From Mobula hypostoma (lineage: Eukaryota): DNA of 64,000 nucleotides. The stretch lies in contig NC_086097.1 of NCBI RefSeq assembly GCF_963921235.1, positions 72,294,001 through 72,358,000 on the forward strand. The letters are read 5' to 3'. A program made the position numbers and the translations under genes. Of this stretch, positions 7,131 to 64,000 are shown piece by piece. Position 1 is the stretch's first letter. Every line of letters begins with the position of its first letter. A model generated the notes under the pieces. That model saw only the letters and a list, made by a program, of their open reading frames with translations. It was not told where the DNA came from and searched no databases.

Positions 7131-7388
7131 GTCTCGAGGTAACTTATCATGCTAGCCCCACAGCCACATTGAATTTCTGGAGAAGAAAACTCCTAAGGAT
7201 CTGCTAGGACCATCACCACAACCCTGCAATGAATAGCGAATGAGGTATTCATGTCCAAAATAAAGCCAAAGAGGCTAAATGAAGTGTATTAAAACAACAG
7301 GAATTCTGCAGATGCTGGAAATTCAAGCAACACACATCAAAGTTGCTGGTGAACACAGCAGGCCAGGAAGCATCTGTAGGAAGAGGTG

Positions 7389-7430
7389 CAGTCGACGTTT
7401 CAGGCCGAGACCCTTCGTCAGGACTAACTG
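7389..7430 (-). ncRNA. Minimal hammerhead ribozyme (left arm)
   Basis: Reverse complement is identical to 4750-4791. Confidence 0.85.
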
Positions 7431-7718
7431 AAGGAAGAGTGAGTAAGGAATTTGAAAGTTGGAGGGGGAGGGGGAGATCCAAATTGATAGGAGAGGACAG
7501 GAGGGGGAGGGATGGAGCCAAGAGCCGGACAGGTGATAGGCAAAAGGGATACGAGAGGATCATGGGACAGGAGGTCCGGGAAGAAAGACAAGGGGGGGGG
7601 GACCCAGAGGATGGGCAAGGGGTATATTCAGAGGGACAGAGGGAGAAAAAGGAGAGTGAGAGAAAGAATGTGTGTATAAAAATAAGTAACAGATGGGGTA
7701 CGAAGGGGTGGTGGGGCA

Positions 7719-10473
7719 TTAGCGGAAGTTAGAGAAGTCGATGTTCATGCCATCAGGTTGGAGGCTACCCAGACGGAATATAAGGTGTTGTTCCTCCAAC
7801 CTGAGTGTGGCTTCATCTTTACAGTAGAGGAGGCCGTGGATGGACATGTCAGAATGGGAATGGGATGTGGAATTAAAATGTGTGGCCACTGGGAGATCCT
7901 GCTTTCTCTGCCGGACAGAGCGTAGATGTTCAGCAAAGCGGTCTCCCAGTCTGCGTCGGGTCTCGCCAATATATTAAAGGCCACATCGGGAGCACCGGAT
8001 GCAGTATATCACCCCAGTCGACTCACAGGTGAAGTGTTGCCTCACCTGGAAGGACTGTTTGGGGCCCTGAATGGTGGTAAGGGAGGAAGTGTAAGGGCAT
8101 GTGTAGCACTTGTTCCGCTTACACGGATAAGTGCCAGGAGGGAGATCAGTGGGGAGGGATGGGGGGGACGAATGGACAAGGGAGTTGTGTAGGGAGCGAT
8201 CCCTGCGGAATGCAGGGGGGGGGAGGGAAAGATGTGCTTAGTGCTGGGATCCCGTTGGAGGTGGCGGAAGTTACGGAGAATAATATGTTGGACCCGGAGG
8301 CTGGTGGGGTGGTAGGTGAGGACCAGGGGAACCCTATTCCTAGTGGGGTGGCGGGAGGATGGAGTGAGAGCAGATGTACGTGAAATGGGGGAGATGTGTT
8401 TAAGAGCAGAGTTGATAGTGGAGGAAGGGAAGCCCCTTTCTTTAAAAAAGGAAGACATCTCCCTCATCCTAGAATGAAAAGCCTCATCCTGAGAGCAGAT
8501 GCGGCGGAGACGGAGGAATTGCGAGAAGGGGATGGCATTTTTGCAAGAGACAGGGTGAGAAGAGGAATAGTCCAGATAGCTGTGAGAGTCAGTAGGCTTA
8601 TAGTAGACATCAGTGGATAAGCTGTCTCCAGAGACAGAGAGAAAGATCTAGAAAGGGGAGGGAGGTGTCGGAGATGGACCAGGTAAACTTAAGGGCAGGG
8701 TGAAAGTTGGAGGCAAAGTTAATAAAGTCAATGAGTTCTGCATGCGTGCAGGAAGCAGCGCCAATGCAGTCATCGATGTAGCGAAGGAAAAGTGGGGGAC
8801 AGATACCAGAATAGGCACGGAACATAGATTGTTCCACAAACCCAACAAAAAGGCAGGCATAGCTCGGACCCATACGGGTGCCCATAGCTACACCTTTAGT
8901 TTGGAGGAAGTGGGAGGAGCCAAAGGAGAAATTATTAAGAGTAAGGAGTAATTCCGCTAGACGGAGCAGAGTGGTGGCAGAGGGGAACTGATTCGGTCTG
9001 GAATCCAAAAAGAAGCGTAGAGCTTTGAGACCTTCCTGATGGGGGATGGAAGTATATAAGGACTGGACATCCATGGTGAAAATAAAGCGGTGGGGGCCAG
9101 GGAACTTAAAATCATCGAAAAGTTTAAGAGCGTGAGAAGTGTCACGAACATAGGTCGGAAGGGATTGAACAAGGGGGGGATAAAACCGTGTCGAGGTATG
9201 CAGAAACGAGTTCGGTGGGGCAGGAGCAAGCTGAGACAATAGGTCGGCCAGGACAGGCAGGTTTGTGGATCTTGGGTAGGAGGTAGAATCGGGAAGTGCG
9301 GGGTGTGGGAACTATAAAGTTGGTAGCAATGGATGGGAGATCCCCTGAGCGGATAAAGTCGGTGATGGTGTGGGAGACATTGGCCTGGTGCTCCTTAGTG
9401 GGGTCACGATCGAGGGGTAAATAAGAGGAGGTATCCGCGAGTTGTCGCTGTGCCTCGGCAAGGTAGAGGTCAGTACGCCAGACTACAACAGCACCCCCCT
9501 TATCAGCGGGTTTAATAATAAGGTTAGGATTAGTGCGCAGGGAGTGGAGAGCAGAGCGTTCCGAAGGAGTGAGGTTGGAATAGGGACAAGGTGCGGTGAA
9601 GTCGAGACGGTTGATGTCCCGTCGGCAGTTAGCAATAAAGAGATCCAGAGCAGGCAGAAGACCAGAGCGGGGTGTCCATGAAGAAGAGGAGGGTTGAAGA
9701 CAGGAGAAGGGGTCATCGGTGGGGGTGGAAGAGTCCTTGCCAAAGAAGTAGGCTCGGAGACGGAGACGGCGGAAGAAAAGTTCCGCATCATGGCGAACAC
9801 GGAACTCGCTGAGGTGTGGGCGACGGGGGACAAACGTGAGGCCCTTACTGAGAACAGAGCGTTCTGCCTCCGACAGTTGAAGGTCGGAGGGGATGGTAAA
9901 GACCCGGCACGGATGAGAGCTGGGATCAGAGGGGGGAGAGGGGAGGCTGGGTGTGTGAATGGAGAGGGAAGGGTTGGGGTGAGAGGAAGATGGAGCCTCC
10001 AAGGGCCCAGGAGCTGACGATGGGATCTGAAGGAGACGGGATTGCAGAGTATTGGTGGTGGAAGGGGAGACGGGAGTCACAACAGCAGCGCATAAAGACC
10101 CGGCCTGGAGCTCAAGGCTGGAGTTGCAGTTGGTGGTTGCGCAATCGCTGTGAAGGTGTCCATGGTCGTTGCTGGAGTCCGGGTTTTGAATATGTCCTGA
10201 GGTGTTGGAGCCTGCGAGATCAATGGCAGATGCCGCAATCTGAAGTTCATGCCTGCTAGTTTCAGGGCCAGCAGGCTCTGGAGTCCGTAGATGTAGGATC
10301 TTGCGATCTTTGCCTAACATGACAAAGTAAAAAAAAAACGGCGATTGCAGGCGTGAATCCGACGGAGGATGAAATAACGGGTAGGACCATTACAGACGGC
10401 GAAGAAAGTGTCCCGAAGGTGTGGAAGGGTCTGGGATAGGGACACCCAGTACCTCCTCATGGCGGAGAGAGTC
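7719..10473 (-). pseudogene. PLE polyprotein (N-terminal domain, RT, Cys linker, GIY-YIG endonuclease); 5'-truncated and frameshifted
   Basis: LSKGLTFVP, IIKPADKGGAVVV, FYLLPKIHK...GRPIVS, MDVQSLYTSIP, KGVAMGT, RYIDD; frameshifts at simple repeats (about 10330, 9175, 8640, 8215); in-frame TAA at 7974-7976; natural stop 7719-7721. Confidence 0.93.
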
Positions 10474-10488
10474 ATTATATACATTATA

Positions 10489-11848
10489 GGATGTCCAGTC
10501 CTTATATACTTCCATCCCCCATCAGGAAGGTCTTAAAGCTCTACGCTTCTTTTTGGATTCCAGATCTAATCAGTTCCCCTCTACCACCACTCTGCTCCGT
10601 CTAGCGGAATTAGTCTTTACTCTTAATAATTTCTCCTTTGGCTCCTCCCACTTCCTCCAAACTAAAGGTGTAGCTATGGGCACCCCTATGGGTCCTAGCT
10701 ATGCCTGCCTTTTTGTTGGGTTTGTGGAACAATCTATGTTCCGTGCCTATTCTGGTATCTGTCCCCCACTTTTCCTTCGCTACATCGATGACTGCATTGG
10801 CGCTGCTTCCTGCACGCATGCAGAACTCGTTGACTTTATTAACTTTGCCTCCAACTTTCACCCTGCCCTCAAGTTTACCTGGTCCATTTCCGACACCTCC
10901 CTCCCCTTTCTAGATCTTTCTGTCTCTGTCTCTGGAGACAGCTTATCCACTGATGTCTACTATAAGCCTACTGACTCTCACAGCTATCTGGACTATTCCT
11001 CTTCTCACCCCGTCTCTTGCAAAAATGCCATCCCCTTCTCGCAATTCCTCCATCTCCGCCGCATCTGCTCTCAGGATGAGGCTTTTCATTCTAGGACGAG
11101 GGAGATGTCTTCCTTTTTTAAAGAAAGGGGCTTCCCTTCCTCCACTATCAACTCTGCTCTTAAACGCATCTCCCCCATTTCACGTACATCTGCTCTCACT
11201 CCATCCTCCCGCCACCCCACTAGGAATAGGGTTCCCCTGGTCCTCACCTACCACCCCACCAGCCTCCGGGTCCAACATATTATTCTCCGTAACTTCCGCC
11301 ACATCCAACGGGATCCCACCACTAAGCACATCTTTCCCTCCCCCCCTCTCTCTGCATTCCACAGGGATCGCTCCCTACACAACTCCCTTGTCCATTCGTC
11401 CCCCCCATCCCTCCCCACTGATCTCCCTCCTGGCACTTATCCGTGTAAGCGGAACAAGTGCTACACATGCCCTTACACTTCCTCCCTTACCACCATTCAG
11501 GGCCCCAAACAATCCTTCCAGGTGAGGCAACACTTCACCTGTGAGTCGACTGGGGTGATATACTGCATCAGGTGCTCCCGATGTGGCCTTTAATATATTG
11601 GCGAGACCCGACGCAGACTGGGAGACCGCTTTGCTGAACATCTACGCTCTATCTGGCAGAGAAAGCAGGATCTCCCAGTGGCCACACATTTTAATTCCAC
11701 ATCCCATTCCCATTCTGACATGTCCATCCACGGCCTCCTCTACTGTAAAGATGAAGCCACACTCAGGTTGGAGGAACAACACCTTATATTCCATCTGGGT
11801 AGCCTCCAACCTGATGGCATGAACATCGACTTCTCTAACTTCCACTAA
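10489..11848 (+). pseudogene. PLE RT C-terminal half plus GIY-YIG endonuclease; 5'-truncated, one in-frame stop
   Basis: KGVAMGT, RYIDD, FLDL, YYKPTD, CKRNKCYTC...FTCESTGVIYCIRCSRCGL*YIGETRRRLGDRFAEH...GMNIDFSNFH*; the Cys-rich linker is typical of the Neptune clade. Confidence 0.93.
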
Positions 11849-12098
11849 GGCCCCACCTCCCCCTCGTACCCCATCTGTTACTCATTTTTATGCACACATT
11901 CTTTCTCTCACTCTTTTTCTCCCTCTGTCCCTCTGAATATACCTCTTTCCCATCCTCTGGGTCCCCCCCCACTTCTTGTCTTTCTTCCCGGACCTCCTGT
12001 CCCATGATCCTCTCATATCCCCTTTTGCCTATCACCTGTCCAGCTCTTGGCTCTATCCCTCCCCCTCCAACTTTCAAATCCCTTACTCACTCTTCCTT

Positions 12099-12140
12099 CA
12101 GTTAGTCCTGACGAAGGGTCTCGGCCTGAAATGTCAACTG
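12099..12140 (+). ncRNA. Hammerhead ribozyme (right arm), CpG-decayed
   Basis: CTGACGA...GAAATGTCaactg; two CpG-type transitions relative to GAAACGTCgactg. Confidence 0.7.
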
Positions 12141-12239
12141 CACCTCTTCCTACAGATGCTGCCTGGCCTGTTGCGTTCACCAGCAACTTTGATGTGTATT
12201 GTTAAATGAAGTGTATTTATCTCTTTGGGTCAACTTCTG

Positions 12240-16510: not shown

Positions 16511-17836
16511 TGCTTTGGTGATAAATTGTTGTTGAAGTTATATGCCGACGGCTAGACAGATGGAACACAAGCACAGGAACGTGAATGGTGTGTAATGCAA
16601 GACTATGAGAAATTACAATAAACACCAACATAATCTTAAGGAATCTCAGCTCATCGTCCATTTGGGCATGTTGCAATCTTCTGAAGTCAATATTAAGGGC
16701 AAGAGCCTCGGGCAACTCACTTTCTTTAATCATGTCAGTACCGGCCAGTCTGCTGCAGGTCACCCATCTGTAATAACAGGTCAGTTCTTTCCTTCTCCAT
16801 TGATATGGCCTGAGCTGCTCAGATTCCTCACAGCTTTGCAAAACACCATTCAATATCCTTTGTCTGTGTTCCAGCTCCCCAGCTGTTGCCAGTAGCCTAA
16901 CTACCAGACAACCTCATCAAGTGGCAGCTTTATCACCCAAGAAGTCCTGGCCTCAGCCTGTCAAAGATATTCCTTTGGTTTTAACCATCCTCATTACAAC
17001 TTAAGCATATTGTTTTCTTTCTTTCTTGTCTGATAAGGGTCCTTCACTAAAGTGCTCATCTTCCAACAGATGCTACTTGACCTGTTGTTTTCAGATTGTG
17101 AATTAGTTCTCAGCAGATGACAATAAACAAGTTTTTAAACCAGTGCTGAAATATATCAGAATTATTGAAGTTTCATTTACAATACAAAATAGCAATAAGT
17201 CCTCAATGAAAATTTGCCATATCAGTCATGATACACTCAAAGCAATAGGTTCAGTATTTGTATGTGTTAGCTTTTAGTAAACTACCTAGCTGTACCCACT
17301 GCACTGCACCTTCCCTGTGGCCTTACAAAATTCTCCTTTAAAGGAATATATCCTATTGCTTTTAGAAGTCATGACCGAATTAGCAGCAACTAACCATCTG
17401 TGTGGTGATAATATCATTCTAGATCATAACCATCCACAGCTAAAAATAAAATTCTCAATTCCACAGCCTCACTCATTTCTTTTTTGCCAATTGTTCATCA
17501 GTAGTGTCATCGGATTACTGACCCTGCAAGTGAAAATTCTTTCTCTTGATTTACTTCTGAACACCTCTATTAAATCTCCCCCTAAGCTTCTCTGCCTTAA
17601 AGATAAATTCCAGCCACAAATCTTTCCACATAACTGAAGTGCCTCATCCTTGGTATCATTCTAATAAACTATTTTTTTGTACTTTCTCCAAAGACTTGAC
17701 ATCAAATGTGCCCAGAATTTAACAAATTGCTCCAGCTGTGGTTCTAACCAGTTATTTAAAAATATTTGACGTAATGTCACTGTGTTTGTATTACTTGTTT
17801 CTATTTATAAATACAAGGATCACCTTCAAATATCTG

Positions 17837-17931
17837 CAACACACATATAAGTTGCTGGTGAACGCAGCAGGCCAGGCAGCATCTCTAGGAAGAGGTGCAG
17901 TCGACGTTTCAGGCCGAGACCCTTCGTCAGG
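17837..17931 (-). mobile_element. Minimal PLE insertion (hammerhead plus tail only)
   Basis: 15-bp TSD accttcaaatatctg (17822-17836, 17932-17946); 5' end falls within hammerhead stem I. Confidence 0.9.
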
Positions 17932-17933
17932 AC
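17898..17933 (-). ncRNA. Minimal hammerhead ribozyme
   Basis: Reverse complement gtc-CTGACGA-agggtctcggcct-GAAAC-GTC-gactg. Confidence 0.8.
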
Positions 17934-18476
17934 CTTCAAATATCTGTTCATGTGAAATCATGTTTGTCTAGCTATGAACCCTTTTAAAATGACCTACCCT
18001 TTTAAAATTGAATATTTAATTTATGTTGCCTTTGTGGAATATTGGTGCCCAGCCTAAATGAATGGCTGCTATGTGAGACAGAATTAACCCTGGAAAAGCA
18101 GATACAGATATGTGAAGCTGTGGAGCTATCTGCAGCCGGGCTGGAATTGTTGGCTAGCCAACAAGAGGAAGTAAGTACATGTGGTGAAACACAGGCCAAA
18201 AGACAGAATAGAGAAACCACAGCCAAAATGACTTGTGTGCTTCAAATAACATGCGCGACAACATGAGCAGCTGAAGAGGAAGTTTGCTGCGGTTGGGAAT
18301 AGTGCGAATGACAGGGATGATTTCTAAAAGCAATGCATGATGAATTGGGCATAAAGATCATGGAATGGGCAAGATGAGTCAAGCAGGGCAGAGACGGGAT
18401 GGGATGCACAGTTCAGCTGAACATAATGTACTAATACCTTTGGAGAGAGCACCCAGTCAAAGTTTCATTGCCAAGA

Positions 18477-18799
18477 GGAGACACAAAAGACTGCAGATAC
18501 TGGAACTTTGAGCAAGAAACATACTGTTGGAGGAACTCAGTGGGTTGATCACTATCTACGGGGGAAAGGTATTGTCAACATTTCGGGCACTGCTCCCACT
18601 CTGTGATTTCTACTGCTCTCCTGTTCTTCAATTATATTCTTACCTGCCACCCATCATCGGCCTCCTGTCTCACTCCTCCCACTCTCTCCCTTCTCAATTC
18701 TCAGTTATGCTGCAGGATCTGGACACAAAACATTCCTCATTCCCACCCTCCCACAAATGCGGCTCCTCCCGTTGAGTTCCTTGAGCAGTTTGTTTTACA
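18477..18799. mobile_element. Old two-tailed PLE insertion
   Basis: Minus tail 18481-18588, plus pyrimidine-rich UTR and tail to about 18797; decayed TSD tttcattgccaaga / tttcagtaccaaga (18463-18476, 18800-18813). Confidence 0.6.
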
Positions 18800-19199
18800 T
18801 TTCAGTACCAAGATGCTGGGGCCAAGGAATTTCAGCTTCATTTGGGAACTTCACAGAGCATCCTCCCAAAGCAAGTCCTCTGTCTCAAGTTATGTGCTGC
18901 TGATGTGCTGTAAAATCATGCTGGGGTGTGCACATCCAGAGAGTCACAGAATGATTTCAAAAGATTTTTAAAAAACGGTTTTACAAATCCATACCAGCTA
19001 AGTATACTGTAACTTCAATCTAACTGGTCTCAAACTCAGCCCTCTCCCCATCCCTCTGCAAGTTCTATCCTTTCAGACTCCTACTCAGTTCCCTTTTGTG
19101 TCATACTCTCTGCTTCTATAAAACCCGAAGCACTGGGTGGTTCCTTTAACCAATTTCTCAACATGCCCTATCACTTTTTGACAAAATGAAATCATACTG

Positions 19200-19700
19200 T
19201 ACACCCAGAGGCCACTTCATTAAGAACCTCCTGTAGCTAACGAAGTGTATATTTGTGGTCTTCTGTTGCTGTAGTCCATCCAATTCAAGGTTCAACATGT
19301 TGTGCATTCAGGATGTGTGTGGTTATTTGAATTACTCTCTCCTTCCTGTTAGTTGAACTAGTCTGGCCATTCTTCTCTGAACTTTCTCATTAACAAGACA
19401 TTTTTGCCCACAAAACTGCTGCTCACTGGATGTTTTTTGTTTCCCACACCCTTCTCTGTAATTCTAGGGACTGGTGTGAATGAAAATCCCAGGAGATTAG
19501 CAGTTTCTGAGATACTCAAACCACTCTGCTGGGCATCAACAATCATTCCATGGTCAAAATTCCTTCCCCATTCTGACATTTGATCTGAACAACAACTGAA
19601 TCTCTTGACCATGTCTGCATGCTTTTATACATTGAAATACTACTGCATGATTGGCTGATTAATTGAATTGTACTGCTGCATGATTGGCTGGTGACCATCA
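19200..19700 (-). mobile_element. Non-autonomous Tc1-like element
   Basis: Reverse ORF NFDHGMIVDAQQSGLSISETANLLGFS is a Tc1 transposase HTH N-terminus; end cacccagaggccacttcattaag resembles a Tc1 TIR. Confidence 0.7.
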
Positions 19701-19718
19701 AGTAAATACCAAATAATT

Positions 19719-20211
19719 TTAGATTAGATTATGAGGACAAGCAGTCCTCTTTTCTTGTCATTTAGTAATGTATGCATTAAGAAATGATACAACGTTTCTC
19801 CAGAATGATATCAAAAAACACATGATAAACTGACTGAAAATCTGACAAAAAACACATAATTATAACATATAGTTACAACAGTGCAAAGCAATACCATGAT
19901 TTAATAAAGAACAGACCATGGGCACGGTAAAAAGTCTCAAAATCTCTCAAAAGTCCCATCATCTCACGCAGACGGTGAACCTTCAGCACCGCAAACTTGC
20001 CGATGCAGCATCCTGGAAGCATCCGACCACACTCCGACTCCGAGTTCGTCCGAAAACCCCGAGCCTCCGACCAGCTCTCCGACACCGAGCACCGAGCACC
20101 ATCTCTGCCGAGCGCTTCGACCCCGGCCCCCGGCAACAGGCAATAGGCAAAGCCGAGGATTTGGGGCCTTCCCCTCCAGAGATTCTCGATTGCACAGTAG
20201 CAGCGACAGCC
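19719..20211 (-). mobile_element. Non-coding retroposon (SINE-like) with (TAATC)n tail, 5'-truncated
   Basis: Clearly homologous to 53552-54050; ends in ttagattagatt repeats. Confidence 0.7.
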
Positions 20212-20329
20212 TGAATTTTCTATTCTTCTGGTCTTTTTAGAACTGGCCTTTTAGTTCATGTTGCCTCTTCTCATTCCCACTATAAACAAAATGTCTCATA
20301 TTGTTTATAAAATTATACAAGGCTTATTT

Positions 20330-20640
20330 AGTATGAGAGTAGACAGCCAGTATCTTTTTTTCCCCGGGTTTGAAATGTCTAGTACTCGAGGGTAGGCACT
20401 TAAGGTGAAAGGGAGAAGTACAAAGGATATGTGCAACGAGTGGAGGTGGCCTGAAATGCACTAGATGGTGTTAGAGACAGACAGAGTGGGACATTTAAGA
20501 CACTATCAAGCACATGAATATAGAGAAGGGAAAGATATGGTCAATGAGGGATGAGATTTATTGAAAGTCATTGGTTTAGCTTTGTGACCTAAAGGGCCTC
20601 TCCTGTGCTTTACTGCACCATGCTCTATGTTCTATGTTCA
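20330..20640 (+). mobile_element. CR1 3' end remnant
   Basis: aagggcctctcctgtgctttactgcaccatgctctatgttctatgttc tail. Confidence 0.6.
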
Positions 20641-21419
20641 TTTCTGATCATTAAAGTTCACCTGCCAATGATCTGCCCGTTCCCCCTGCCTATCTTTATT
20701 GCTCCACTAGTCTATTGCCACCTACCTTACAGTACATAACACCTACATGTTTTGTGACATCTCCAAATTTGGAAAATATGTATGTACACCAAGGTCCTTT
20801 AATAAATAGTAGAAAAATCACAGTCCTAATATGGTGTCCTGGGGAACTTCAGTATATGTTCCCTCTAACTTGAGAAGCAAATTTTCACTATTGATATTTG
20901 TTTCCTGTTACTTATTCAATTTTCAACTTGTGCCGTTACAGCCTCTTTTATTCCACATGCTTCAATATTGTTTGCAAATTTATAATGAGGCATCTTATCA
21001 ACAAGATTTTCCACTATTACTGGCAGCTAAAACTATACAGCAGATGGGAATGGTAAGTGTACACCCTGACAGGATCATGAAGATTGCATCAGTATTAGCA
21101 GTTGCTGGATCCACCCAGTTTGCAGGAAAATATTATTAATATATTTCTTGACACAAAAATGTAAAGGATGGCATAGTCCTGAAAAGGCATGGAGTTCAAG
21201 GCAGTTGTTTTGACTGTTCATCATTTTTCCTCCTTGTTGTTAATTAATAAAAGAGTGTAACATATGTCATGGGCAGTGTTGTTTCGTATCACTTGAAGAA
21301 ATTTATTGCTATCTCTCTCTCTTACCAGACTGGTGTGGAACACAATGAAAGCTGGTGACCTCTGTGAAAGGAAGGCAGAGTAAGAATGCTCCCTGACACT
21401 GTGAACTTACTTGCAAACA

Positions 21420-21830
21420 TATGGTGTGGGAGTAAGCCATTCAACCACTCGAGTTTGCTGGGCCATTTAGCAAGATCATCATGGCTGATCTGACAGGAAA
21501 CTCATCTGTGCATTCTCATTGACCTCCCCAACCCTATCAAAAATCTACCCACATCTGTCTTAAATATATTCAAAAAGTTCTAAAGACTCAATGCCTAAAA
21601 TCTCTGCAACTGTTTCCAGTGTTTTATCATAAATAAGGAAAGCAATACTGCACACAGATATCCAAATGCAGTCTCACCAATATTCCATCTAACTGAAGCA
21701 TAACCTCCCTACATAAGTATTCAATGTCAGTAGCAACAAATGATAATTTCCTGTAGGCTATGCTAATTAATTACTTTTACCTGCATCCTAACACTTTTCA
21801 AAGCATGCATGAAAGCATCCAGATCCCATT
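21420..21830 (-). mobile_element. CR1 3' end remnant
   Basis: ggagtaagccattcaaccactcgag...gatcatggctgatct reverse tail; aatactgcacacagatatccaaatgcagtctcacc encodes an LVRLHLDICVQY-like motif on the minus strand. Confidence 0.55.
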
Positions 21831-22136
21831 TATTTAATAAAAACCCTTTTTGTTAATTTAACTTACTAAACATTTTCTAAAATCTTATAGAAAGATTCTG
21901 AGATAAATATTTCAGGCTGACATCTTTAATTGTACCTCAGGGATTGTGGTATTTGCAAAACTAAGTCTTCACATGTATTTGACTTGAAACTTCTTGTAAT
22001 TCTAGACCTTGTTTACTGCTTATCCTGTAGATTGTATTATACTTTTAGATGTGGTTGTTCAAGGCGAGATAGCTTAAGAGAAAGATCGCGATGGAGGTTT
22101 TCAGATTTTTATTTTATTTTGGAGATTTATGATAAG

Positions 22137-22327
22137 TGTTATGTTTTTGTGTATATTTTGACTCTATCGAACTTCCCTGTGTGTGGTGTACTGAATGTAA
22201 TGTAAGAGGGCATTCTGGGTAGTTAACTTACAAGTAAAATAAATTGCTCCACGTTTGTTCCTCACCTCTCCAACTCCTGTTTGTGTTATCCACGGCCACC
22301 CTGCTTCCCACTACCACGTACATAACA
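22137..22327 (+). repeat. Gypsy 5' LTR
   Basis: TGttatg...cataaCA with internal aataaa; similar to 27435-27633. Confidence 0.8.
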
Positions 22328-22329
22328 AC

Positions 22330-22340
22330 TGGCAACGAGG
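22330..22340 (+). promoter_or_regulatory. Primer-binding site, probably tRNA-Ser(GCU)
   Basis: tggcaacgagg, 2 nt after the LTR; one mismatch to TGGCGACGAGG, the complement of the vertebrate tRNA-Ser(GCU) 3' end. Confidence 0.7.
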
Positions 22341-24320
22341 TGATAAGTCCTCACACGATATCTATTATTTTGTTCCCTTCAGCAAGAAAAGTTTGTGTGC
22401 AACGCTGATGGTGTACCGCTATGTTAGGTGGGTGAACAAAAAGAAAATGGCCATAGGAAGTGTGTGGTGAGCGAAGAATCTGAGGGGAGAGAACGAAAAC
22501 AGGAAAACTAAATAAAACATATAAGAGAGGGGGAGGGGGGGATAAGACTAATTAACTTTTCTGGAAAGAGATTGTGTTTAAAAATGGCAACAATGTTTGG
22601 AAGTATGTGTCAGTATTTCAGAACAACAGAACAATGGAGAAAGATTTAAAAGTTTTGCACTGGTAAACCAAATTTCAGGTGATATTCATGTCCAACTCTT
22701 CTGACCGTGATGGGTGGAAAAACTTTTAATTTATTACACCGTCTAGTGCAACCAGCTAAGCCTGGTGATGAGCATCATGAGGTCTTAGCTAAAGTCTTAA
22801 AGGACCACTATTCACTAAACCTTTGATTATTGCTGAGATTTTTAGGTTTCATAAAAGGAATCGAGAGGAAGGTGAGTTTATTTTACAGTTTGTGGTTGAA
22901 CTGAAGCAATTGTCTGATCACTGTGATTTTGGACTGTCGCTGAATGACACATGACATGATAGACTCGCATGTGGTCTGCATAGTGAGGCAATTCAGAAAC
23001 ATTTGCTTACAGAAGACAGACTAACATTACAGAAGGCAATTGAGATTAGTACATCTATGGAGATGTCACCTAAAGAAGAATAGCAGTTAAGTGTATCTTC
23101 CCAAGTTCATAAAGTTTCTACTGACTTTAAGAATAAGGCATGTATTGGCAATCATTGTTAACTTTGTGGAAAAACTGGGCATTCAGCAAATGAATGCTGG
23201 GATAAAGATTTAAATTGTCGAAGCTGTGGCAAAAAGGACATATTAAAACTATTTGTAAAAGTAAAAAGACACTGTCAACCAAAAACACTGCAATTAAGAA
23301 AATTGACTTTTGGAAAAAAAAGGAAACGTGAACAGGATGGAGCATACTGAGGACAGATTGAGTGATTTTCACTCCATTGTTGAAGAAGCTTTTTATGCTT
23401 TATTTATTTCCATATACAAAGATGGCTACCAGGTGACCCCATGGTTGGATGTGGGCCACGGTGCGGTAGCAGATAGACATGGATGTTGCAGTATTGCTGG
23501 TGTCAGAGACGGTTTACCAGGAGAAATTTCAGCATCTCACCCCCAGAAGGGGCAAGGTCGACTTTAAAGACATACATTGGTGGGATTGTCCCAGTGAGGG
23601 GAGTAGTACATGTTACAGTGGCAATTAATGAACAGAGAAAGAAACCTCCACTGCACATTGTTAAAGGTAGTTACCCAGTGCTTTTGGGATGTTAGTGGGT
23701 GGAGCAGCTCAAACGCAACTTGCATTAGGTACACTTGATTGGTGGGAGCACTGGTCTACAAGATGTATTGAAAAAACTTGCAGAAGTATTCATTGTGGAA
23801 CTGGGCAGTATGAAAAGAATCCCTATTAAGTGGGCTGCTAATCCAACACAACACACAAATGCCTGAAAGTAAAACCTATTCCATGTGTCCTGAAACAAAA
23901 GATAGAGGCTGAATTGGAAAGACTGGCCCAGAGTTGGTATTGGAACCAGTGTGTGTAAGTAAATGGGCAACTCCAGTGGTTCCTGTCCTAAAAAGGGATG
24001 GGTCTTTAAGGGTCTGTGGAGACTTCAGGGTAACCATTAACCAGACTCTTAGGGCTGAACAATACCCTCTTGTCCTCATTAATGACCTTGTTTTTGAAGA
24101 ATTGGCTAGAGGACAGACACTTAGCAAGACTGACTTGTGTCAAGTACTGCATGTGGAGCCAGGGTCCCAGGATAGGTTGACCATAGTGACTCACAAAGTA
24201 ACATTCAGATGCTGAAGGCTTCCATTTGCCATTAACTTGGCTCCTGCACTTCTCAGCAAGCAATGGACCAGATCCTGAGCAGGTTTACAGGAGTGCAATG
24301 TTACTTGGATGACTTACCCA

Positions 24321-24929
24321 TGTATGGGGTCTTTTTTTTTGTATGTTAAATTTTAAATGGCTTCTTTGTTATGTTATACTGGGGAATGCTTCTCTGTTAT
24401 GTTAAATGCTGAGAAAGTCTCTAGCTAGACAGTTGTTTGGGTTAATATAGATAGCAGAGTGCTATTAGCCAATGGGTGTTCATGTATCATTCTTTTTCGA
24501 ATGATAATGCTGTCTTATATGACTGGGGACGGAGATTTTGGCGGGGAGTCAGAGGAGAGACGGAGAGGATGGCGGACATGCGGAAAGGCTCCGGTCAATA
24601 ACTTCAGGAGGTCTCGAGCCGTGAGTCGACAGGATCCGGGTGGTCACCAGGAATTGACTGAGCTCCAACGGTTGCGCGCGAAGAACTTGGACTGTGATAA
24701 GTCTTGGCACATTTTTTTCACTACTTCCTTTTCTGTATCGAATTTATATTAATGTCATAGACTTAGTAATATCTATAAAGTGCACTTGGTAAAATGTACT
24801 GGGTGTGCTGGCTGATGACTGATGTTTGGGCTTGATTCGGGCGACAACCGACTCCGTGGGAAGCGTTGAGGCAGGTGCTGGGTGGGATTTCCCCTAGACA
24901 TATACAAGCCAATATAACAGAACATTACA
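24321..24929. mobile_element. Solo LTR of a second LTR retroelement inserted just after YLDD
   Basis: TG...CA termini; 4-bp TSD ccca (24317-24320, 24930-24933); removal restores YLDDLPITGKNE. Confidence 0.8.
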
Positions 24930-24978
24930 CCCATCACTGGGAAAAATGAGTGTGAGCACCTACAAAGCCTGGATGCTA

Positions 24979-25029
24979 AACACAAAATAATCTGCAGATG
25001 CTGGGATCAAAGTTCCTCCAGCACGTTGT
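24979..25029. mobile_element. 51-bp two-tailed PLE micro-insertion
   Basis: 14-bp TSD aagcctggatgcta (24965-24978, 25030-25043); minus tail aacacaaaataatctgcagatgctgg plus plus-strand piece gttcctccagcacgttg. Confidence 0.8.
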
Positions 25030-26879
25030 AAGCCTGGATGCTACACTGCAAAGACTCAAGGAATATGGGCTAAGAGTCTGGAAGGGTAAGTGTGAGTTCT
25101 TTTAATATTCATTTGAATATTTGGACCTTGTGACAGACAACTCAGGACTTCACAAGGTACCATCGAAGGTGCAGGCAATCGTGGAGGCTCCATTACCACA
25201 GAAAGTAAGTCAATTGAGATCTTTCTTAGGATTACTAACATACTATGCGAAATTTATTCCTAACCTAGCTAGCATGCTGAAACCACTTCACGAGCTTTTA
25301 AATAAATCAACACACTGGCACTGGACAGATCGCTGTGAAAAGGATTTTAAAAAGGCCTGAACAGCTTTGTCACTTTCTGCAGCACTCACACACTTCAGCC
25401 TATCATTGCCCACACAGCTAGCCTGCAGTACATTACCCTTTGGGGTGGGGATTGTTATCTCACACATCATACCATCGGGCGAAGAGCATCCAATTGCCTT
25501 CACATCAAGGACATTAAGCAAGGCAAAAAGCCACTATGCCCAGGTTGAGTAGGAAGCCCTCACAATTGTCTTTGGAGATAAGAAATTCCATCAATTTCTC
25601 TTTGTCAACGATTTACACAACTGACCGATCATCACCCCTTGATGTCAATTTCTGTTCCACATACGGGCATTCCTTCCCTGGCTGCTAGCCAAATGCAACA
25701 TTGGGCTATGTTAAAAGTAACTATGGCGCAAGTTCAGAAGCACACACGTACTGACCCTGTTCTATCTAAAGTAGTGGACATGGTAACTCATGAATGGAAA
25801 GGAGAATTTAAACCTTACCAGGCTTGATGGAAGGAGCTCACAGTCTAAGCTGGATGTTCACTATGGGGCTACTGTGTTGAGATTCCTCCACCATTCAGAA
25901 AGCAAGTGCTTGATGAGCTACATGCAGGACACTGTGGTGTGGTATACATGAAAGAAAACATATGCAGCTTCTTATGGTGGCCAGGAGTGTACGTAACCAT
26001 TGAAGGGAAGACCAAAGCATGTCCACGTTGTCAGCAAGTGAGAAATGTTTCTCAGTTTGCTCCTTTGGATCCATGTGATGGCCTGAAGAACCATGGCAAA
26101 GGATTCACATAGATTCTGCAGGACCTGCAGAAGGCCGCATCTTCTTGGTCGTAGTAAACTCACACAGCAAATGGCCCAAGGTTACCATCATGAAGAACAC
26201 CACATCTGAAAAATGTATTGAGGAGCTACATTCCATCTTTAGTCATTTTGGGTCTCCTCAATAAATTGTAAGTGACAATGGCCCACAGCTCCTGTCTGAA
26301 GAGTTCAAGGCATTTATGGAAGCAAATGGTATTCAACGCATCAAGTCAGCGCCATTCGTACAAACATCGAAACAAGTCCTTAAGACTTCAGTGGGAATAG
26401 GATCCCTCAACCAACATCTTAGTATTTTCTTGCTGACATACCATAACGCACCTCACGCCACCAACAAAATGGCTCCAGCCACTACACTGATGAGAAGACT
26501 GCTTTGTACATGGTTTGACCTGCTTAGACCCCCAAACACAAAACAAGTTGAATGAAATGAACAGAAAACCCAAGCAGAGAGACATGCCAAAGCGATGTAC
26601 AGAAGTTTCACAGCAGGAGAGAGAGTACTTACCCAGAACTACATCTCTGGAACCAAGTGGATACCTGTGACGGTGGAGGCACAAACTGGCCCTGTGTCAT
26701 ACACAGAAGAAGCTAGTAACCACAACATCTGGAGAAGGCATGTTGACCAGCTGTTGCCCACTTCTGAGGCTACAGAAAACCAATACAAACCTACCATTCC
26801 AGATCCAGTTGTAGGAATGGGACGGTATTCTGAGACAGCGACTACAGGACCTCCATTAAGATCAAATAACATGGCAATT

Positions 26880-27430
26880 GTTCCTCTGATTGGTGAAGCC
26901 AGATGGGTGGGAAAGACAAAGGGTTAGAGAAGAAGGATTCTAATAGGAGAGGAGAGTGGACCATTATTGAAAGGGAAGGAAGAGGGGACCCAAGGGGAAG
27001 TTATAGGCTGGTGAGAAGAAGTAAAAGGCTAGAATGGGGAGTAGAAGAAGAGGGGAGGGGAGGGAAAAAATTACCAGAAGGAGAAATCGATATTCATGCC
27101 ATCAGGTTGGAGGCTCCCAGACAGAACATAAGGTATTGCTCCTCCTCCCTGAGGGTGGTTTCATCTTGGTACAAGAGGAAGCCATGACCGACAGGTTGGA
27201 ACAAGAATGGGAATCCAAATTAAAATGCTTGGCCTCTTGAAAGTTCTGATTCTGGCGAATGGCCCGGAGGAGCTCGACGAAGCGGTCCCTCAACTTACAA
27301 CGGGTCTCACCAATGTAGAGGAGACTGCAGGGGTAGAGCTGGACATAATAGACAACCCAGCAGATTCACAGGTGAAGTGTTGTCTCACCTGGAACGAGTG
27401 TTTGGGGCCGTAAGTGGAGGTGAGGGATAC
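26880..27430 (-). mobile_element. PLE GIY-YIG and 3'UTR fragment inside the Gypsy 3' region
   Basis: Reverse strand encodes FQVRQHFTCES...CSLLYIGET...RDRFVELLR...HFN. Confidence 0.8.
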
Positions 27431-27434
27431 TGTA

Positions 27435-27633
27435 TATTATGTATTCATGTATATTTTGACCTTTACGGGTTGCTGTCCAGCTTCCTTGTACGTTACATAC
27501 GGTACGCAATGTGAGAAGACATTCTGAGCAGATTTTCAAGCAAAATAAACAGCTGCCTGCTTGTTCATCACCTCTCCATCTCTCGTGTGTGTTATTCACT
27601 GCCACCCAGCTTCCCAGAACCACAAACATAACA
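27435..27633 (+). repeat. Gypsy 3' LTR
   Basis: tattatg...tgtatattttgac...aaaataaa...cacctctcca...gccaccc.gcttccca...cataaca, collinear with the 5' LTR. Confidence 0.8.
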
Positions 27634-28197
27634 GTAAGATAACGGGTTATATTTTATGTGGACATAGCTGGCAATGCTACCATTTACTGTCATCCTTAAT
27701 TGCAGTTAAGATTTAAATCACACTGGTGAGTTGGAACACGCAGGTAACCCTGGACACTTTAATATGTTAAACTACTTTTACTGAAGGACGTTCATGAATC
27801 ACGTAGGTTTTTAATGACAGTATATTAGCTTCATAGCTACTGTTGCTTACATGACATTTTTTTACATTTCTGTTTTAATTATTTGAGTTTTAATTCCCTG
27901 GTTGCTATGATGCAACTCAAACTTTGTGACCAAGAACTCTGGAAGTTAACCATTATTCATTGTGCATGGTAAAATGATGAATTCATTAGAGGAATCATTA
28001 TTTTGCATTCTGATCTATCTTTCCAGACTAATGGGTGCTCCCTGCAGGTAACAACATTTTTGTATTTCTCTACATAAACAAGGCAGTACTGAGTGACAAA
28101 ATAGATTGCAGCCTCATTTGTACCAGAGTTAATTTTGATTCTGAGAATTGGTTGGGCAGGCAAGGAAATTTCACCCACTTTGATATCAGTTCATTCA

Positions 28198-28430: not shown

Positions 28431-28575
28431 GTGAGGGGCCGTTCACTTACTAAAAGGCACAGACATTCCAACAGATCCTCCTGTATGAAGAGATCAATCA
28501 GAATGCTAAGGTACTTAGTGCCTAGATCATTTGGGTTTCATTATGTGGTGACATCTGAGCAACATCTGATGCATT

Positions 28576-29477
28576 CTAACACACACAAAGTGCTGGAGGA
28601 ATTTATCAGGTCTGGCTGCATCTATGGAAATGAATAACTTTTTGACATTTTGAGCCAAGACCCTTCATCAAAGGGAGGGGAAAGAAGACAAGTAGGTGAG
28701 AGAGTGGGAAGGAGTACAACCTAGAAGGAGATAGGTGAAGCCAGTTGGGTGGGGGAGGGTAGAATGGATTAAGAAGCTGGGAGATGATAGATGGACATGA
28801 TAAAGAGCTAGGGAAGAAGGAATCTGGTCGGAGAGTAGAGTGGACCATGGAAAAAATGGAAGGATGCACAAATGGGAGGTGACTGGTAGGTGAGGAGAAG
28901 TGAAGAGGTAAGAGAGAGGCAAGAGTGGGGAATTGAAGAAGAGTGAAGGTGAAGGGGGAAAATATCAGAAGTTTGAGAAATTGATGCCCATGCCATCAGG
29001 ATGGAGGCTACTCAGACAGAATATGAGGTGTTGCTCCTCCAACCAGAGAGCTTCCTTATCATGGCGGTAGAGCCGGCCATGGACTGACATGTTGAATGGG
29101 GATTGGAATGAAAGTGGATGTATCGGCATGTCAGAATGGATAGGAGACTCTCCTCTCTGATCAGATTCCTTCTTTTCCAGCCCCTTACCTTTTCTACCTA
29201 TCATCTCCAAGTATTTTACTTCATTCCCCCTCCCCCACCCACCTGGCTTCACCAATCACATTCTAACTTGTACTTCTTCCACTCCTTCCCCCAGCCCCTC
29301 CCCCCACCACTGCATCTTCTAATTCGGTCTTCTTCATCCTTCCTTCCCTGTCCTGATGCACCAAAATGTTGACTGTTTATTCATTTTCATAGATGCTTCC
29401 CAACCTGTTGAGCTCCCCCAGTATTTTGTGTGTGTTGCTTTGGCTTTCCGGCATCTGCAGAATCTCTTGTGTGTGTT
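28576..29477. mobile_element. Older two-armed PLE insertion
   Basis: Minus arm to about 29140 (LEEQHLIF...PDGMGINFSNF), plus arm 29147-29477; 12-bp TSD atctgatgcatt (28564-28575, 29478-29489). Confidence 0.85.
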
Positions 29478-38382: not shown

Positions 38383-38479
38383 TTCACCCTTATCATATCA
38401 GTGTACTAATACTTAGACTTGATATGACTTTAGAGCAAGTTTTGTTCATATTTACTGAACAAAACATCATACATTTCAA

Positions 38480-38644
38480 ACAACAGGAATACTGCAGATG
38501 CTGGAAATTCAAGCAACACGCATCAAAGTCTCTTACTAACTCTTCCTTCAGTTAGTCCTGACGAAGGGTCTCGGCCTGAAACGTCGGCTGTACCTCTTCC
38601 TAGAGATGCTGCCTGGCCTGCTGCGTTCACCAGCAACTTTGATG
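38480..38644. mobile_element. Small two-tailed PLE insertion
   Basis: Minus tail 38480-38529, plus piece 38530-38644; 14-bp TSD atcatacatttcaa (38466-38479, 38645-38658). Confidence 0.9.
38549..38590 (+). ncRNA. Minimal hammerhead ribozyme
   Basis: cagttagtc-CTGACGA-agggtctcggcct-GAAAC-GTC-ggctg. Confidence 0.8.
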
Positions 38645-61073: not shown

Positions 61074-61222
61074 CCATGCAGGGAATGGCTTTGAAGACTA
61101 TGGGGGGTGGGGGGGGGCGGAATCTATCCTGAGTCTTGTACATTAAAGTACAAATCAGCAGAATGGGGTAGCCCACATCTGAAGTCTCATTCAGCTGAAG
61201 CAAATCGAACTAAACTTTGGGA

Positions 61223-61379
61223 CTCAGCAGGTCGGGCAGCATCCGAGGAAACGATCAGTCAGTGTTCCGGCCTGAAACGTTGACTGATTGTTTCCATGAA
61301 TGCTGCCCGACCTGCTGAGTTCCTCCAGCGTGTTGTGAGTGTTGCTTTGACCCCAGCATCTGCAGAGTATTTTATGTTT
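61223..61379. mobile_element. Fold-back two-tailed PLE insertion
   Basis: ctcagcaggtcgggcagcat...cagtca is inverted against tgactg...atgctgcccgacctgctgag; 14-bp TSD actaaactttggga (61209-61222, 61380-61393). Confidence 0.85.
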
Positions 61380-64000
61380 ACTAAACTTTGGGAAAAGTGT
61401 TCAGCTTGTATTATGCATGTGACTGAGGATTCTATCCCAGTGCGACTTCACCTGCATTCATTCTTCGTTCAGTATTGATGCTCCTTTTCTTCCATCAATT
61501 ACATAAAGACAGTGTGATGTTCCTTTCTTTCAAAATGTTTTCCTGCCAAGATTAGTATTAAAAAGTAGTTCCCGCAGCAGAGTCTGCAGAGCCCAGGTGA
61601 GGTAAGGACAACAGAGAATTTCTGGGACACGATTGAAATTGTATATGTCTGCACTCGTGTTTCACCCTCTGCTGAGTAAATGTGAGCAGATCCTGCACAA
61701 TGTTCTCTTTGGACCTCTCTACCTGCTACAGACATTCATTAGAATCTATGTGCTGACAGTTAACAATGTTTCCACAACTGATATGACCTTGTCCTAGTGA
61801 GCTGCTTGGTTGAATTGGTTATCTGCCTTCCTTTCCGATCATGGTATTGAGATGACAAGGTGATAATCCTTTTTCTGTAACGATAATACCTGTTCTTCCT
61901 GAACTGATGTCTACAAGGGAAGCCCATTTTTCTTGCTGGAAATACCAATGTAAAGTTAATGCTTAAATTGCATCTCGCCTGAATTCAGCAACATATTTGA
62001 TTGACACATCTATTCCAGCCTATTGTTAACTAATTTGGTTGCATTTAATGACTTCAGCGCCGTTATCTCAAAGCCACACTTTGATACTTGCAACAACATA
62101 TTTTATATAGTATACAGTATGCTCAGTAAAAATTATTACAGAAGCTGACTAAAGACATCAAAGAGAATGAACACCTAATAAAACATGGATAATCTGCTGA
62201 AAGATATACCAAATTTGAAGTCTAAAAAAGGTACGAGCTTGCATTTCAAAAGTGTATTCCATGACCTCAGGGTCTACTAAAACAATTCACAGCTGATTAA
62301 ATACTTCGTATTTTTCACTGCACAAAACACAATAGCCATTCTTCTCATAAGAGTCTGAAACCCAGGGATCTAGACTCTGTGAAGTTAACTGAGGGATGAT
62401 AATCAGGTTTGCATAAAATAGGAACTCATTTGCTTTACATTGAATTTTTTGCATCCAGCTGAGCCAACTTTGATACATAAACTACACCTGAGATGATTTA
62501 GCACCTTTTCAGTACTACTTTGAAGTGTCAGTCTAACTTGTGTTCAATAGGAGCTAAACTGTGAAAATATTAATTTAGTTCATAACCATCCTGAAGCAAT
62601 AGGAAATTTATTGTAAATAGAGTTAATGGTCAAGGACAATCAATACATTGTACATGTCCATGTATGTTAAGTGATCGAGGTGTTAGAGCTGTTCATTAAT
62701 TTCTGGCAGAGTTCCTGTTTTCAAAGCTGACTAAAACCGTGTAGCTCAGAAGTTGCCAGCTTTATTGAATCAAAACACAATTGCTGATCCCTGACAACTC
62801 CAAATATTTCTGAGTTCATAAACATGTGAATCTTCTGGAAGCAGGACCTGCATCCCACTGTTTAATTCTTTAGGCTTCCCTTAGCTGCATCTGTTCCTCG
62901 TCCAACTTTGAGGACAAGAGAAACGGCCATCCATCCTCTGACTTTTGCAGCCACAAACATTTTATTTGCAAGCAACCTTCTGATGGAGAAAACAGTAAAA
63001 TAATCCAAGTGACTTAAAATAAAAAAGAAAGAAAACACTTTACAACTACTATATTTTAATGACACAGGAGAACACATTTTGAAAGCAGACCATGTCATCC
63101 TAGCAAATTCTAAGGTACAATTTATGTGATTACAAAGGTATTGGTACATTCCTTACCAGAAGACTGAAAATGTGACTTTAATTTACTTAAGTAACTTTTG
63201 CGATCCTTGCATAATTTATACAAGAATATTCTCTGAAAAATCCAGAGTAACTGGAAAACTGAGACAGCAGAATGGACAAAAGTTGGTAGGTGAAAGTAAT
63301 TTAAATTTCTCATTGATACAGCTATATTACTAACATTACTGATTTAATTTATTTGTACTAGTCATGTTAACCACCACAGTATACCATACCAATGACTTTC
63401 ACTAGATTTTCAGACCAATATATCTAACCTAAGGTCCTGGTATTCTTGCATCCTAAATGCAGATGTCAGACTAGGGTGCAAATGAAGTCTTTGTTGGTTG
63501 ACTGGAAACATATAGTTCTGTCAAGGAGCCGTAAATATTACAGATAGTTATTCCTCATTCAGTTGTCTTGATGCCTCCATAGAATAAATGCAGATTGGAT
63601 TTTGAAGTAATGTAACACAGATTCGAAGTATCAATATGGCAGAGATGGTAGCTATTTCGCCAGTTGAGTTTATGTCAGCTTTTGTTGTGCGATTCTCTTA
63701 GCTTCATTCCCCCATGCTAACCCCGTGGTTTTGCAAGTTCATTTCTGCCAAGTATCTATCCAAGACCCTTAAACTTCCACAATGCGTGAAGGCAACAAGT
63801 TCCAGGTCAAATTCTCTCATTACATTGGATGTGCATCCACATAACCCCTGAACCCATCTCCTGAACCTATTACCTCAAGCTTTAAATCTATGTCTTTGAT
63901 CATAGAACATAGAACAGTACAGCACAATATTTCCTACTTTTAACCTACTCCAAGATCAATCTCACATTTCCTTCCCACATGCACAGTTGTCCTTTTACCA

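Follow-up and report, generated by a model that had tools for sequence, protein, structure and literature searches.

Two-armed insertions of a Penelope-like element in the genome of Mobula hypostoma point to priming at both ends of a staggered cut

Introduction

Inverted inserts of Penelope-like elements (PLEs) that lie within one target duplication and carry a tail at one end are already in print (PMC3846280, PMC8557442). In the closest case, Pen2a_Av of Adineta vaga (PMC3846280; scheme in Fig. 2 of PMC8557442), inserts show a head-to-head inverted, 5'-truncated copy in one short duplication, a tail of 30-40 bp at one end only, and an ORF encoding a reverse transcriptase (RT) with a C-terminal GIY-YIG nuclease. 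PMC8557442 still terms the PLE transposition cycle undefined. Frangieh et al. (PMC11167929) reported cleavage and extension of both DNA strands by a purified PLE protein, for which a dimer is predicted; synthesis begins at two adjacent internal RNA start sites whose interval equals the tail. The products in that work, on PAc (Poseidon of Anolis carolinensis), were observed in bulk on separate strands, and the main text draws no link to inverted genomic inserts. Minimal dimer-type hammerhead motifs have been described in PLE terminal repeats, in an arrangement said to act as a dimer (PMC4209133). The accessible portion of the literature on Penelope-like elements and twin priming held no work on PLE mechanism, and that of a 2026 animal retrozyme preprint (10.64898/2026.07.22.740005) nothing on inverted inserts.

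Here we describe two-armed PLE inserts in a 64-kb stretch of the Mobula hypostoma genome (the window) and genome-wide. They resemble Pen2a_Av in the inverted truncated copy, the one-end tail and the domain order, and PAc in the pair of start sites bounding the tail. They differ from Pen2a_Av-type inserts in that the copies examined hold no pseudo-LTR partial tandem, the shortest pair measures 51 bp, the genome holds very many copies (74,129 exact 22-nt tail motifs) and the one-tail rule is near-absolute rather than 'often'. Compared with PAc, the genomic products show the two ends of one event using different start sites and different templates.

In L1 twin priming, reportedly described by Ostertag and Kazazian in 2001, the second 3'-OH of a staggered cut is said to prime reverse transcription as well, and the two cDNAs are said to be joined by microhomology into an inversion inside one duplication. 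Because the second L1 primer anneals internally on the same RNA, the resulting pieces are adjacent and essentially non-overlapping. The arms described here, in contrast, both have their start in the 3' tail, have an overlap of up to 1.7 kb and trace to templates that can be told apart. L1-type twin priming calls for adjacent, non-overlapping segments of one RNA, whereas the aligned columns common to two paired arms number 97 to 1,703.

Results

Identity of the element

The element was assigned to the PLEs because both a reverse transcriptase and, at the C terminus, a GIY-YIG nuclease are present. The 613-aa open frame of one natural copy (L018) matched the Pfam models RVT_1 (residues 105-265, E 1.9e-5, 24.9 bits) and GIY-YIG (residues 516-590, E 4.2e-4, 21 bits), both scores lying below the curated cut-offs. 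A YIDD motif is visible in the PLE translation, and the nuclease region reads GVIYCIRCSRCGL-x-YIGET, then ...EHLRS...THF, the motif of endonuclease-bearing PLEs. The element also has the single-ORF architecture of that group (RT, then C-terminal GIY-YIG), its optional 30-40 bp tail at one end, here an extension of ~37 nt, and the inverted 5'-truncated copy adjoining the 5' end inside one target duplication. Pseudo-LTR partial tandems, common though optional in that group, were not found: 3/3 near-full-length copies showed no upstream tail, and same-strand motif pairs numbered 33 against 237 with tails outward.

By eye, the tail carries CTGACGA...GAAACGTC|GAC and a palindromic GTCGAC, putative hammerhead core boxes that resemble the dimer-type hammerhead of PMC4209133. 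A search of Rfam for a hammerhead gave no match at gathering score across the whole window, and none at E up to 10 in the tail of either arm. Folding of the tail allows hairpins, with a minimum free energy of -41.1 kcal/mol (z -2.2).

Two-armed inserts in the window

In all six pairs of the window the left arm is on the minus and the right arm on the plus strand. The features are as follows.

7276-7290 / 12203-12217: duplication of the 4.9-kb pair, 15/15 identical
7291..10488, minus: long arm, 3.2 kb, 5'-truncated PLE, distal start with 37-nt tail extension
10489..12202, plus: short arm, 1.7 kb, proximal start without extension, duplicating the 3' 1.7 kb of the long arm
18463-18476 / 18800-18813: duplication of the 18477 insert, 12/14
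18477..18799: old 323-bp pair, minus arm with extension ~18477-18590, plus arm to 18799
24965-24978 / 25030-25043: duplication of the 51-bp insert, 14/14, the host being another repeat
24979..25012, minus: 34-nt arm, tail extension only
25013..25029, plus: 17-nt arm, ending at the proximal start site
28564-28575 / 29478-29489: duplication of the 28576 insert, 12/12
28576..29033, minus: arm without extension, older subfamily
29153..29477, plus: arm with extension
38466-38479 / 38645-38658: duplication of the 38480 insert, 14/14
38480..38529, minus: 50-nt arm made up of the extension and 12 further nt, 96% identical to the tail
38523..38644, plus: 122-nt arm, ending at the proximal site
61209-61222 / 61380-61393: duplication of the 61223 insert, 14/14
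61223..61261, minus: 39-nt arm without extension, starting ~65 nt from the distal end
61262..61379, plus: 118-nt arm with extension
2923..3280, minus: single-orientation insert that carries the extension and a 23-nt filler at the 5' junction, duplication 12/12
4725..4855, plus: single-orientation insert without extension, duplication 12/12
17836..17933, minus: single-orientation insert without extension, duplication 12/12

A preliminary description of the window had listed six two-armed inserts, one of them with a decayed duplication, and three single-orientation inserts with clear duplications. All six pairs lie where that description placed them and the three single ones were located too; five of the six pairs are clean, with tails outward and exact duplications of 12-15 bp. 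The sixth, at 18477-18799, has an imperfect duplication and weak arms: the right arm was assigned by weak similarity to the tail, and the similarity between the two arms did not exceed that of shuffles (score 44 against a shuffle maximum of 54). When inserts of the same lengths were placed at random in the window, allowing a slack of +-3 nt, exact repeats of at least 12 nt abutted the insert in 6 of 20,000 placements.

The long arm of the 4.9-kb pair has stretches coding for RT and GIY-YIG, and an in-frame TAA; its identity to the short arm is 94.6% over 1755 aligned columns including gaps, with 40 substitutions in 1703 columns. In the inserts at 7291, 28576 and 61223 the arms match each other well above shuffles. 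Those at 24979 (34 + 17 nt) and 38480 (50 + ~120 nt) have arms that barely overlap, but each arm matches the family tail.

Orientation across the genome

Across the whole genome, motif pairs at a spacing of 150-180 comprise 237 with the left motif minus and the right plus (-,+), 9 of the reverse order (+,-) and 33 on the same strand, the tails-out excess that had been proposed as a check. At a spacing of 50-80 there are 3,964 (-,+) motif pairs. Among the first 100 genome places of the 22-nt tail motif, neighbours closer than 3 kb were (-,+) in 15 cases, (+,-) in none and same-strand in one; for a 28-mer of the ORF (first 100 places, neighbours closer than 4 kb) the corresponding counts were 11, 0 and 0. 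The suggestion that this is a main integration route is borne out by the locus sample, in which 11/20 tails belong to tails-out pairs; the sample consists of 20 of 40 full-length tail matches, the best matches to one query arm.

Junctions, duplications and target sites

A duplication of 9-18 bp flanks 11/14 pairs at the fetched loci, and none was found in the other three (L015, L017 and L028b). No internal duplication is present at the inner junction of the pairs. The head-to-head junctions show 1-4 nt of overlap in seven pairs, 2-17 nt of filler in five and a complex structure in one.

For the repeat hosting the 51-bp insert, the left and right flanks of six paralogs overlap on a single copy of the 14-mer, and in the alignment of fetched paralogs 3/3 have an uninterrupted target with one 14-mer. 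Comparison of region 19000-38999 with contigs of four runs (X1, X5, X11 and X9) gave output dominated by repeat copies; among the joints listed, none corresponded to an insert plus one duplication copy. Single-step gain of the pairs is thus suggested by their anatomy and by the paralogous copies.

One tail extension per pair

In 6/6 window pairs one arm has the distal start with an extension of ~35-39 nt, and its partner starts ~32-65 nt further in. Both arms thus begin within the same short 3' tail, as the preliminary description had it, but their start points differ in every window pair. Exactly one arm carries the ~37-nt terminal tail in 21/21 pairs (6/6 in the window, 14/14 at fetched loci and 1/1 on contig C64). 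Genome-wide, the extension motif is found on both arms in 20 pairs versus 3,528 with it on one named side, and pairs with a tail on both arms are ~15 times rarer than expected under independence. Among the first 50 motif pairs the exact extension motif is one-sided in 28 and two-sided in 0. Either arm can be the longer one, the extension arm being so in 12/20 pairs.

Templates of the two arms

The in-frame TAA is rare, with 11 exact 28-mers against 6,354 with TTA (0.17% of copies), and is present on both arms in 2/2 pairs that hold it, the 4.9-kb window pair and the C64 pair. Each of these pairs combines two haplotypes, defined at positions 394 and 330 (counted from the 3' end), that recur in other, independent TAA copies; the window arms differ also at positions 428 and 385, where the C64 arms agree. 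The two arms of such a pair thus have a rare allele in common but are set apart by recurrent haplotype sites; neither is a copy of the other, and they derive from two distinct, closely related templates. The arms of L016b (16/16 duplication) differ at both subfamily sites 98 and 86, and those of L019 at sites 86 and 224. At informative non-CpG sites 41/275 arm comparisons were discordant, compared with 20.2% for shuffled partners.

Sites 301 and 300 were excluded for poly-C length slippage. The 20-tail sample is biased toward the query arm alleles 107T, 103A, 224T and 41A, which weakens lineage tests on it; tests at sites 107, 103, 224 and 41 were set aside because the sampled arms had been selected for these alleles. 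A nearest-neighbour test on arm divergence (within-pair 1.5-5.8%, median to other loci 2.0-6.2%) was discarded as uninformative because the family is star-like.

One RNA could in principle serve both primers, if dimeric RTs load at adjacent start sites and copy in tandem while the trailing RT displaces the first cDNA. Such a scheme would directly explain the extension on exactly one arm and agrees with the 0.17% allele common to both arms (2/2 pairs), with the concordance of subfamily site 86 in 50/50 short pairs and with the L017 arms, which have nine variants in common that are absent from all other sampled loci. We nevertheless regard it as unlikely, given the two independently recurrent haplotypes mixed in the window and C64 pairs, the arms of L016b and L019, and the discordant non-CpG comparisons. 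The preliminary description had offered an RT dimer, two RNAs or template re-use; among these, two templates from one source lineage fit best, and re-use of one template stretch fits least.

Other origins of the pairs

Single priming followed by snap-back or self-priming, an idea raised for rotifer PLEs in PMC3846280, would have the first cDNA or an antisense template fold back into a hairpin-like inverted repeat. Short overlaps at some junctions and the hairpin capacity of the tail are compatible with it. It is very unlikely, however, as the arms of the window, C64, L016b and L019 pairs were not identical at birth and arms are unequal, with either one the longer. Moreover, copying back past the primer is expected to leave a flank in inverted orientation; the flanks observed are direct duplications, and an arm stopping ~37 nt short is not predicted.

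A single transcript with two tails, from a partial-tandem source whose upstream and downstream terminal repeats template both arms, would allow arms of one rare lineage to have different tail haplotypes. It would likewise account for the confinement of private variants shared within the window pair and L017 to at least 549 nt from the 3' end, and multi-unit tandem PLE transcripts have been described (PMC11167929). Against this, nothing tail-like lies in the 1.3 kb upstream of 3/3 near-full-length copies, tails-out pairs outnumber same-strand pairs 7-fold and no source locus was identified, which leaves such a transcript highly improbable.

A history of two independent insertions, in which the later one homed to the 5' end of a copy already in place, would accord with the recognition of PLE sequence by PLE nucleases (PMC11167929), with the three pairs without detectable duplication and with 3/15 close (-,+) neighbours of differing subfamily haplotypes (which may be such cases or chance neighbours), but can be given hardly any credence, as one duplication encloses both arms with none at the inner junction, the 0.17% allele is common to both arms, extension states are strictly complementary, and tails-in and same-strand pairs, also expected from homing, are at or near background.

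Discussion

The two-armed pattern is real and very common in the Mobula hypostoma genome, and it is an already published hallmark of the PLE class. The novelty of two-end priming implied in the preliminary description is therefore not supported, as inverted inserts in one duplication and two-strand extension had both been published. What is added here is quantification, the strict one-long-one-short rule and the evidence for two templates.

Each pair is probably one integration event of an endonuclease-bearing PLE in which both cut ends were primed. The PLE nuclease would cut the two target strands with an offset of ~9-16 nt (median 14). Both of the resulting 3'-OH ends would prime reverse transcription, each on a template RNA at its 3' tail. 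A cDNA starting at the distal site would give the arm that retains the ~37-nt tail; the second cDNA would start at the proximal site, ~32-44 nt further in. Both would extend toward the 5' end over variable distances, and their free ends would then be joined via a few bases of microhomology or filler, with fill-in producing the single duplication. The route originally proposed, in which a staggered cut offers two 3'-OH ends that both prime reverse transcription before end-joining, accords with the single duplication and lack of an internal one, the junctions (0-4 nt of overlap or 2-17 nt of filler), the paralogous targets, the tails-out excess and the related but non-identical arms.

Cleavage and extension of both strands and the use of two start sites have been demonstrated for another PLE (PMC11167929). 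In that in vitro system no difference in start-site use between strands was reported in bulk; we thus infer, rather than directly observe, the coupling of both primings in one complex, and likewise the joining step.

More tentatively, the complex may be obligately asymmetric, a reading that we consider possible but doubtful. Two sister RNAs of one source would be engaged at once, one DNA end always being primed distally and the other proximally, and one cDNA may switch template ~0.5 kb in; such a switch would account for private variants being common to paired arms solely upstream of the switch point. That a putative hammerhead palindrome of the dimer type holds the two templates together is offered only as a suggestion from the tail sequence.

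A genome with tens of thousands of insertion products is a natural record of the PLE cycle. It sets three constraints on any model: in roughly half of the events priming occurs at both cut ends, the start site at one end of an event almost invariably differs from that at the other, and the templates of the two arms are distinct but belong to the same rare lineage. These constraints are directly testable in the published in vitro system. For annotation, a tail pair should be counted as one insertion, not two.

The 4.9-kb insert and the identity of the element

The window lies on contig C1 of the 3.48-Gb assembly. Its largest two-armed insert is built from two copies of a Penelope-like element (PLE).

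Features of the 4.9-kb insert
7291-12202: large inverted repeat of two PLE arms
7291 to about 10488, minus strand: long arm
10489-12202, plus strand: short arm, repeating the 3' 1.7 kb of the long arm

The two arms are 94.6% identical over 1755 aligned columns with gaps counted, and differ by 40 substitutions in 1703 columns. Translations of the element contain motifs of a reverse transcriptase and of a GIY-YIG nuclease, the latter having two cysteines between GIY and YIG. An open 613-aa frame in a natural copy outside the window carries RVT_1 at 105-265 and GIY-YIG at 516-590, both matches falling slightly below the Pfam curated cut-offs. This order, reverse transcriptase followed by GIY-YIG, is that of endonuclease-bearing PLEs. 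Near-full-length copies (L045-L047) exceed the 5' end of the window long arm by 150-177 nt, so that the element measures at least about 3.36 kb; a likely start codon lies within GCCATGAGG.

Two-armed inserts in the window

All six pairs of the preliminary description, said to have a minus arm at the left and a plus arm at the right, were found at their coordinates and in this orientation. The direct repeats around them match, in order, at 15/15, 12/14, 14/14, 12/12, 14/14 and 14/14 positions, while an exact abutting repeat of at least 12 occurred 6 times in 20,000 random placements. For the weakest of the six, at 18477, position, orientation and the 12/14 duplication held, but the arm-to-arm match did not rise above shuffles. 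In all six, one arm starts from the tail's distal end and bears an extension of ~35-39 nt, and the partner arm starts further in. The three inserts described as single-orientation were also real, with 12/12 duplications. One of these, at 2923, has a 23-nt filler at its 5' junction (3258-3280), within which 8 nt of the element's end, GGGGTATA, recur.

The host of the 51-bp insert at 24979 is a repeat of another family. Six paralogs of this host repeat have left-flank and right-flank matches that overlap, sharing a single copy of the 12-14 nt duplicated in the window, and the target site was uninterrupted in all three paralogs aligned. Within 24860-25150, the host repeat has many paralogs, at 81-87% identity, and 24860-24930 is part of another repeat whose copies are 93-97% identical. 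From a related organism, a 217-nt contig spans 25005-25221, covering the right part of the insert, the duplication and flank with 8 differences. From this alignment the insert may predate the split from that organism, the repetitive flank making a paralog match possible as well.

Pairs at sampled loci and across the genome

We sampled 10-kb loci around 20 of 40 full-length tail matches. In 11 of the 20 the focal tail formed the plus arm of a pair joined head-to-head, in nine it was single, and the same loci hold three further pairs away from the focal tails. Duplications of 9-18 bp flank 11 of the 14 sampled pairs and 6 of the 9 singles; none was found around the pair L017, whose short arm ends 28 nt short of the distal end. 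Where the arms meet, seven pairs overlap by 1-4 nt, five have 2-17 nt of filler and one is complex. Across the window and L010-L028, duplications were longer around pairs (n = 17, median 14) than around singles (n = 9, median 11), with p = 0.0047 by a Mann-Whitney test that omits inserts without a detectable duplication and in which several boundaries are uncertain by a few bases. L021 (oriented 8331-8894) has a tandem duplication, of period 358 bp, of a 206-bp tail insert together with its flanks; it arose locally after the insertion and is not a tandem PLE.

In the whole genome there are 74,129 exact matches to a 22-nt tail motif and none to its reversed control.

Orientation of neighbouring motif matches
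Tail motif, first 100 places, neighbours <3 kb: 15 tails-out (-,+), 0 tails-in (+,-), 1 same-strand
ORF 28-mer, first 100 places, neighbours <4 kb: 11 tails-out, 0 tails-in, 0 same-strand
Motif pairs, spacing 150-180, whole genome: 237 tails-out, 9 tails-in, 33 same-strand
Motif pairs, spacing 50-80, whole genome: 3,964 tails-out (only orientation counted)

Tails-out pairs were thus far commoner than other orientations, both at spacing 150-180 and among the first places. The preliminary description would have been refuted had they been no commoner than the rest, so these counts do not refute it. Tails-out pairs were also 17 times commoner at spacing 50-80 (3,964) than at 150-180 (237), an excess which implies that many pairs have both arms ending within the 5' part of a hammerhead-like motif, ~120-135 nt from the 3' end.

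One long and one short arm

Exactly one arm bears the extension in 14/14 sampled pairs. Genome-wide, a motif running from the proximal start site into the extension occurred on both arms at matching spacing in only 20 pairs, against 1,798 and 1,730 cases, for the respective sides, in which it lies on a given side and the motif of the partner arm is at matching spacing. Among the first 50 motif pairs (spacing 50-80), the exact extension motif was one-sided in 28 and two-sided in none. At the per-arm rate of these 50 pairs (0.28), independence predicts that ~310 of the 3,964 pairs would have the extension on both arms, ~15-fold more than the 20 observed. The one-long-one-short rule is near-absolute.

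Templates of the paired arms

Because the 20 sampled arms are skewed to the query's alleles at several sites, we relied on other evidence for the templates. Both arms of the 4.9-kb pair carry an in-frame TAA (7968-7982 and 11585-11599; motif GL*YIGET, in GIY-YIG), where 17/17 other sampled arms read TTA. Exact 28-mers number 11 with TAA versus 6,354 with TTA genome-wide, an allele frequency of 0.17%. Among the 11 TAA copies is another tails-out pair, located on contig C64, with a 10-13 bp duplication and the extension on one arm only. Since so rare an allele lies on both arms of both pairs holding it, the templates were close kin.

Counting from the 3' end, the TAA lineage has two recurrent haplotypes at positions 428/394/385/330, T-T-(A/G)-C in seven arms and (G/T)-C-G-T in three, with one arm intermediate. 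Both TAA pairs combine one arm of each kind. Arms are also unlike at subfamily sites 98 and 86 in pair L016b (16/16 duplication), and at sites 86 and 224 in pair L019. Pulling the opposite way from these differences, nine variants are common to both L017 arms and occur in no other sampled locus, and in 50 short motif pairs site 86 was concordant in 50 and site 98 in 47. Discordance within pairs at informative non-CpG sites was 41/275, versus 20.2% with shuffled partners (12/5,000 shuffles as low). Taken together, these results argue that paired arms stem from two distinct templates within one source lineage, being neither mutual copies nor random draws from the family.

In the 4.9-kb pair and L017, all shared private variants lie at least 549 nt from the 3' end. 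Either a template switch or gene conversion between the arms could produce this distribution; a two-tailed transcript could too, but is unsupported in 3/3 near-full-length copies. Over the last ~500 nt, the arms of these two pairs differ at the haplotype sites and share no private variants, the one exception being a common CpG variant in L017.

The TAA lineage, a small one (28-mers in the window and L035-L043), kept inserting, two of its inserts being two-armed. Copies whose nuclease codon is broken were thus mobilised, presumably in trans.

Relation to known systems

According to PMC8557442, the 5' end of PLE insertions often bears an inverted copy that is 5'-truncated, a 30-40 bp tail is often at one end only, and the mechanism is undefined. 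The rotifer element of PMC3846280 has terminal repeats in direct and inverted orientation and a 9-bp duplication, and one of its inverted repeats carries a 31-bp tail; self-priming is discussed there. A purified anole PLE protein, predicted to dimerise, cleaved and extended both strands and used two adjacent internal start sites, the interval between which is the tail (PMC11167929). The main text of that paper lacks 'head-to-head' and has 'inverted' only for a blocking 3' 'inverted dT' in an assay description, and so makes no explicit connection to inverted inserts in genomes. PLE hammerheads, according to PMC4209133, have an architecture for acting as dimers. By eye, such a motif is present in the tail of the window family, but an Rfam search matched no model to it.

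The two-armed observation is confirmed, and its interpretation, that both target strands are primed, is supported by pair anatomy and orientation counts; both are essentially in print already. What the Mobula hypostoma genome adds is scale, a one-long-one-short rule that is near-absolute, the greater length of the duplications around pairs, and evidence that the arms of a pair come from two sister templates.
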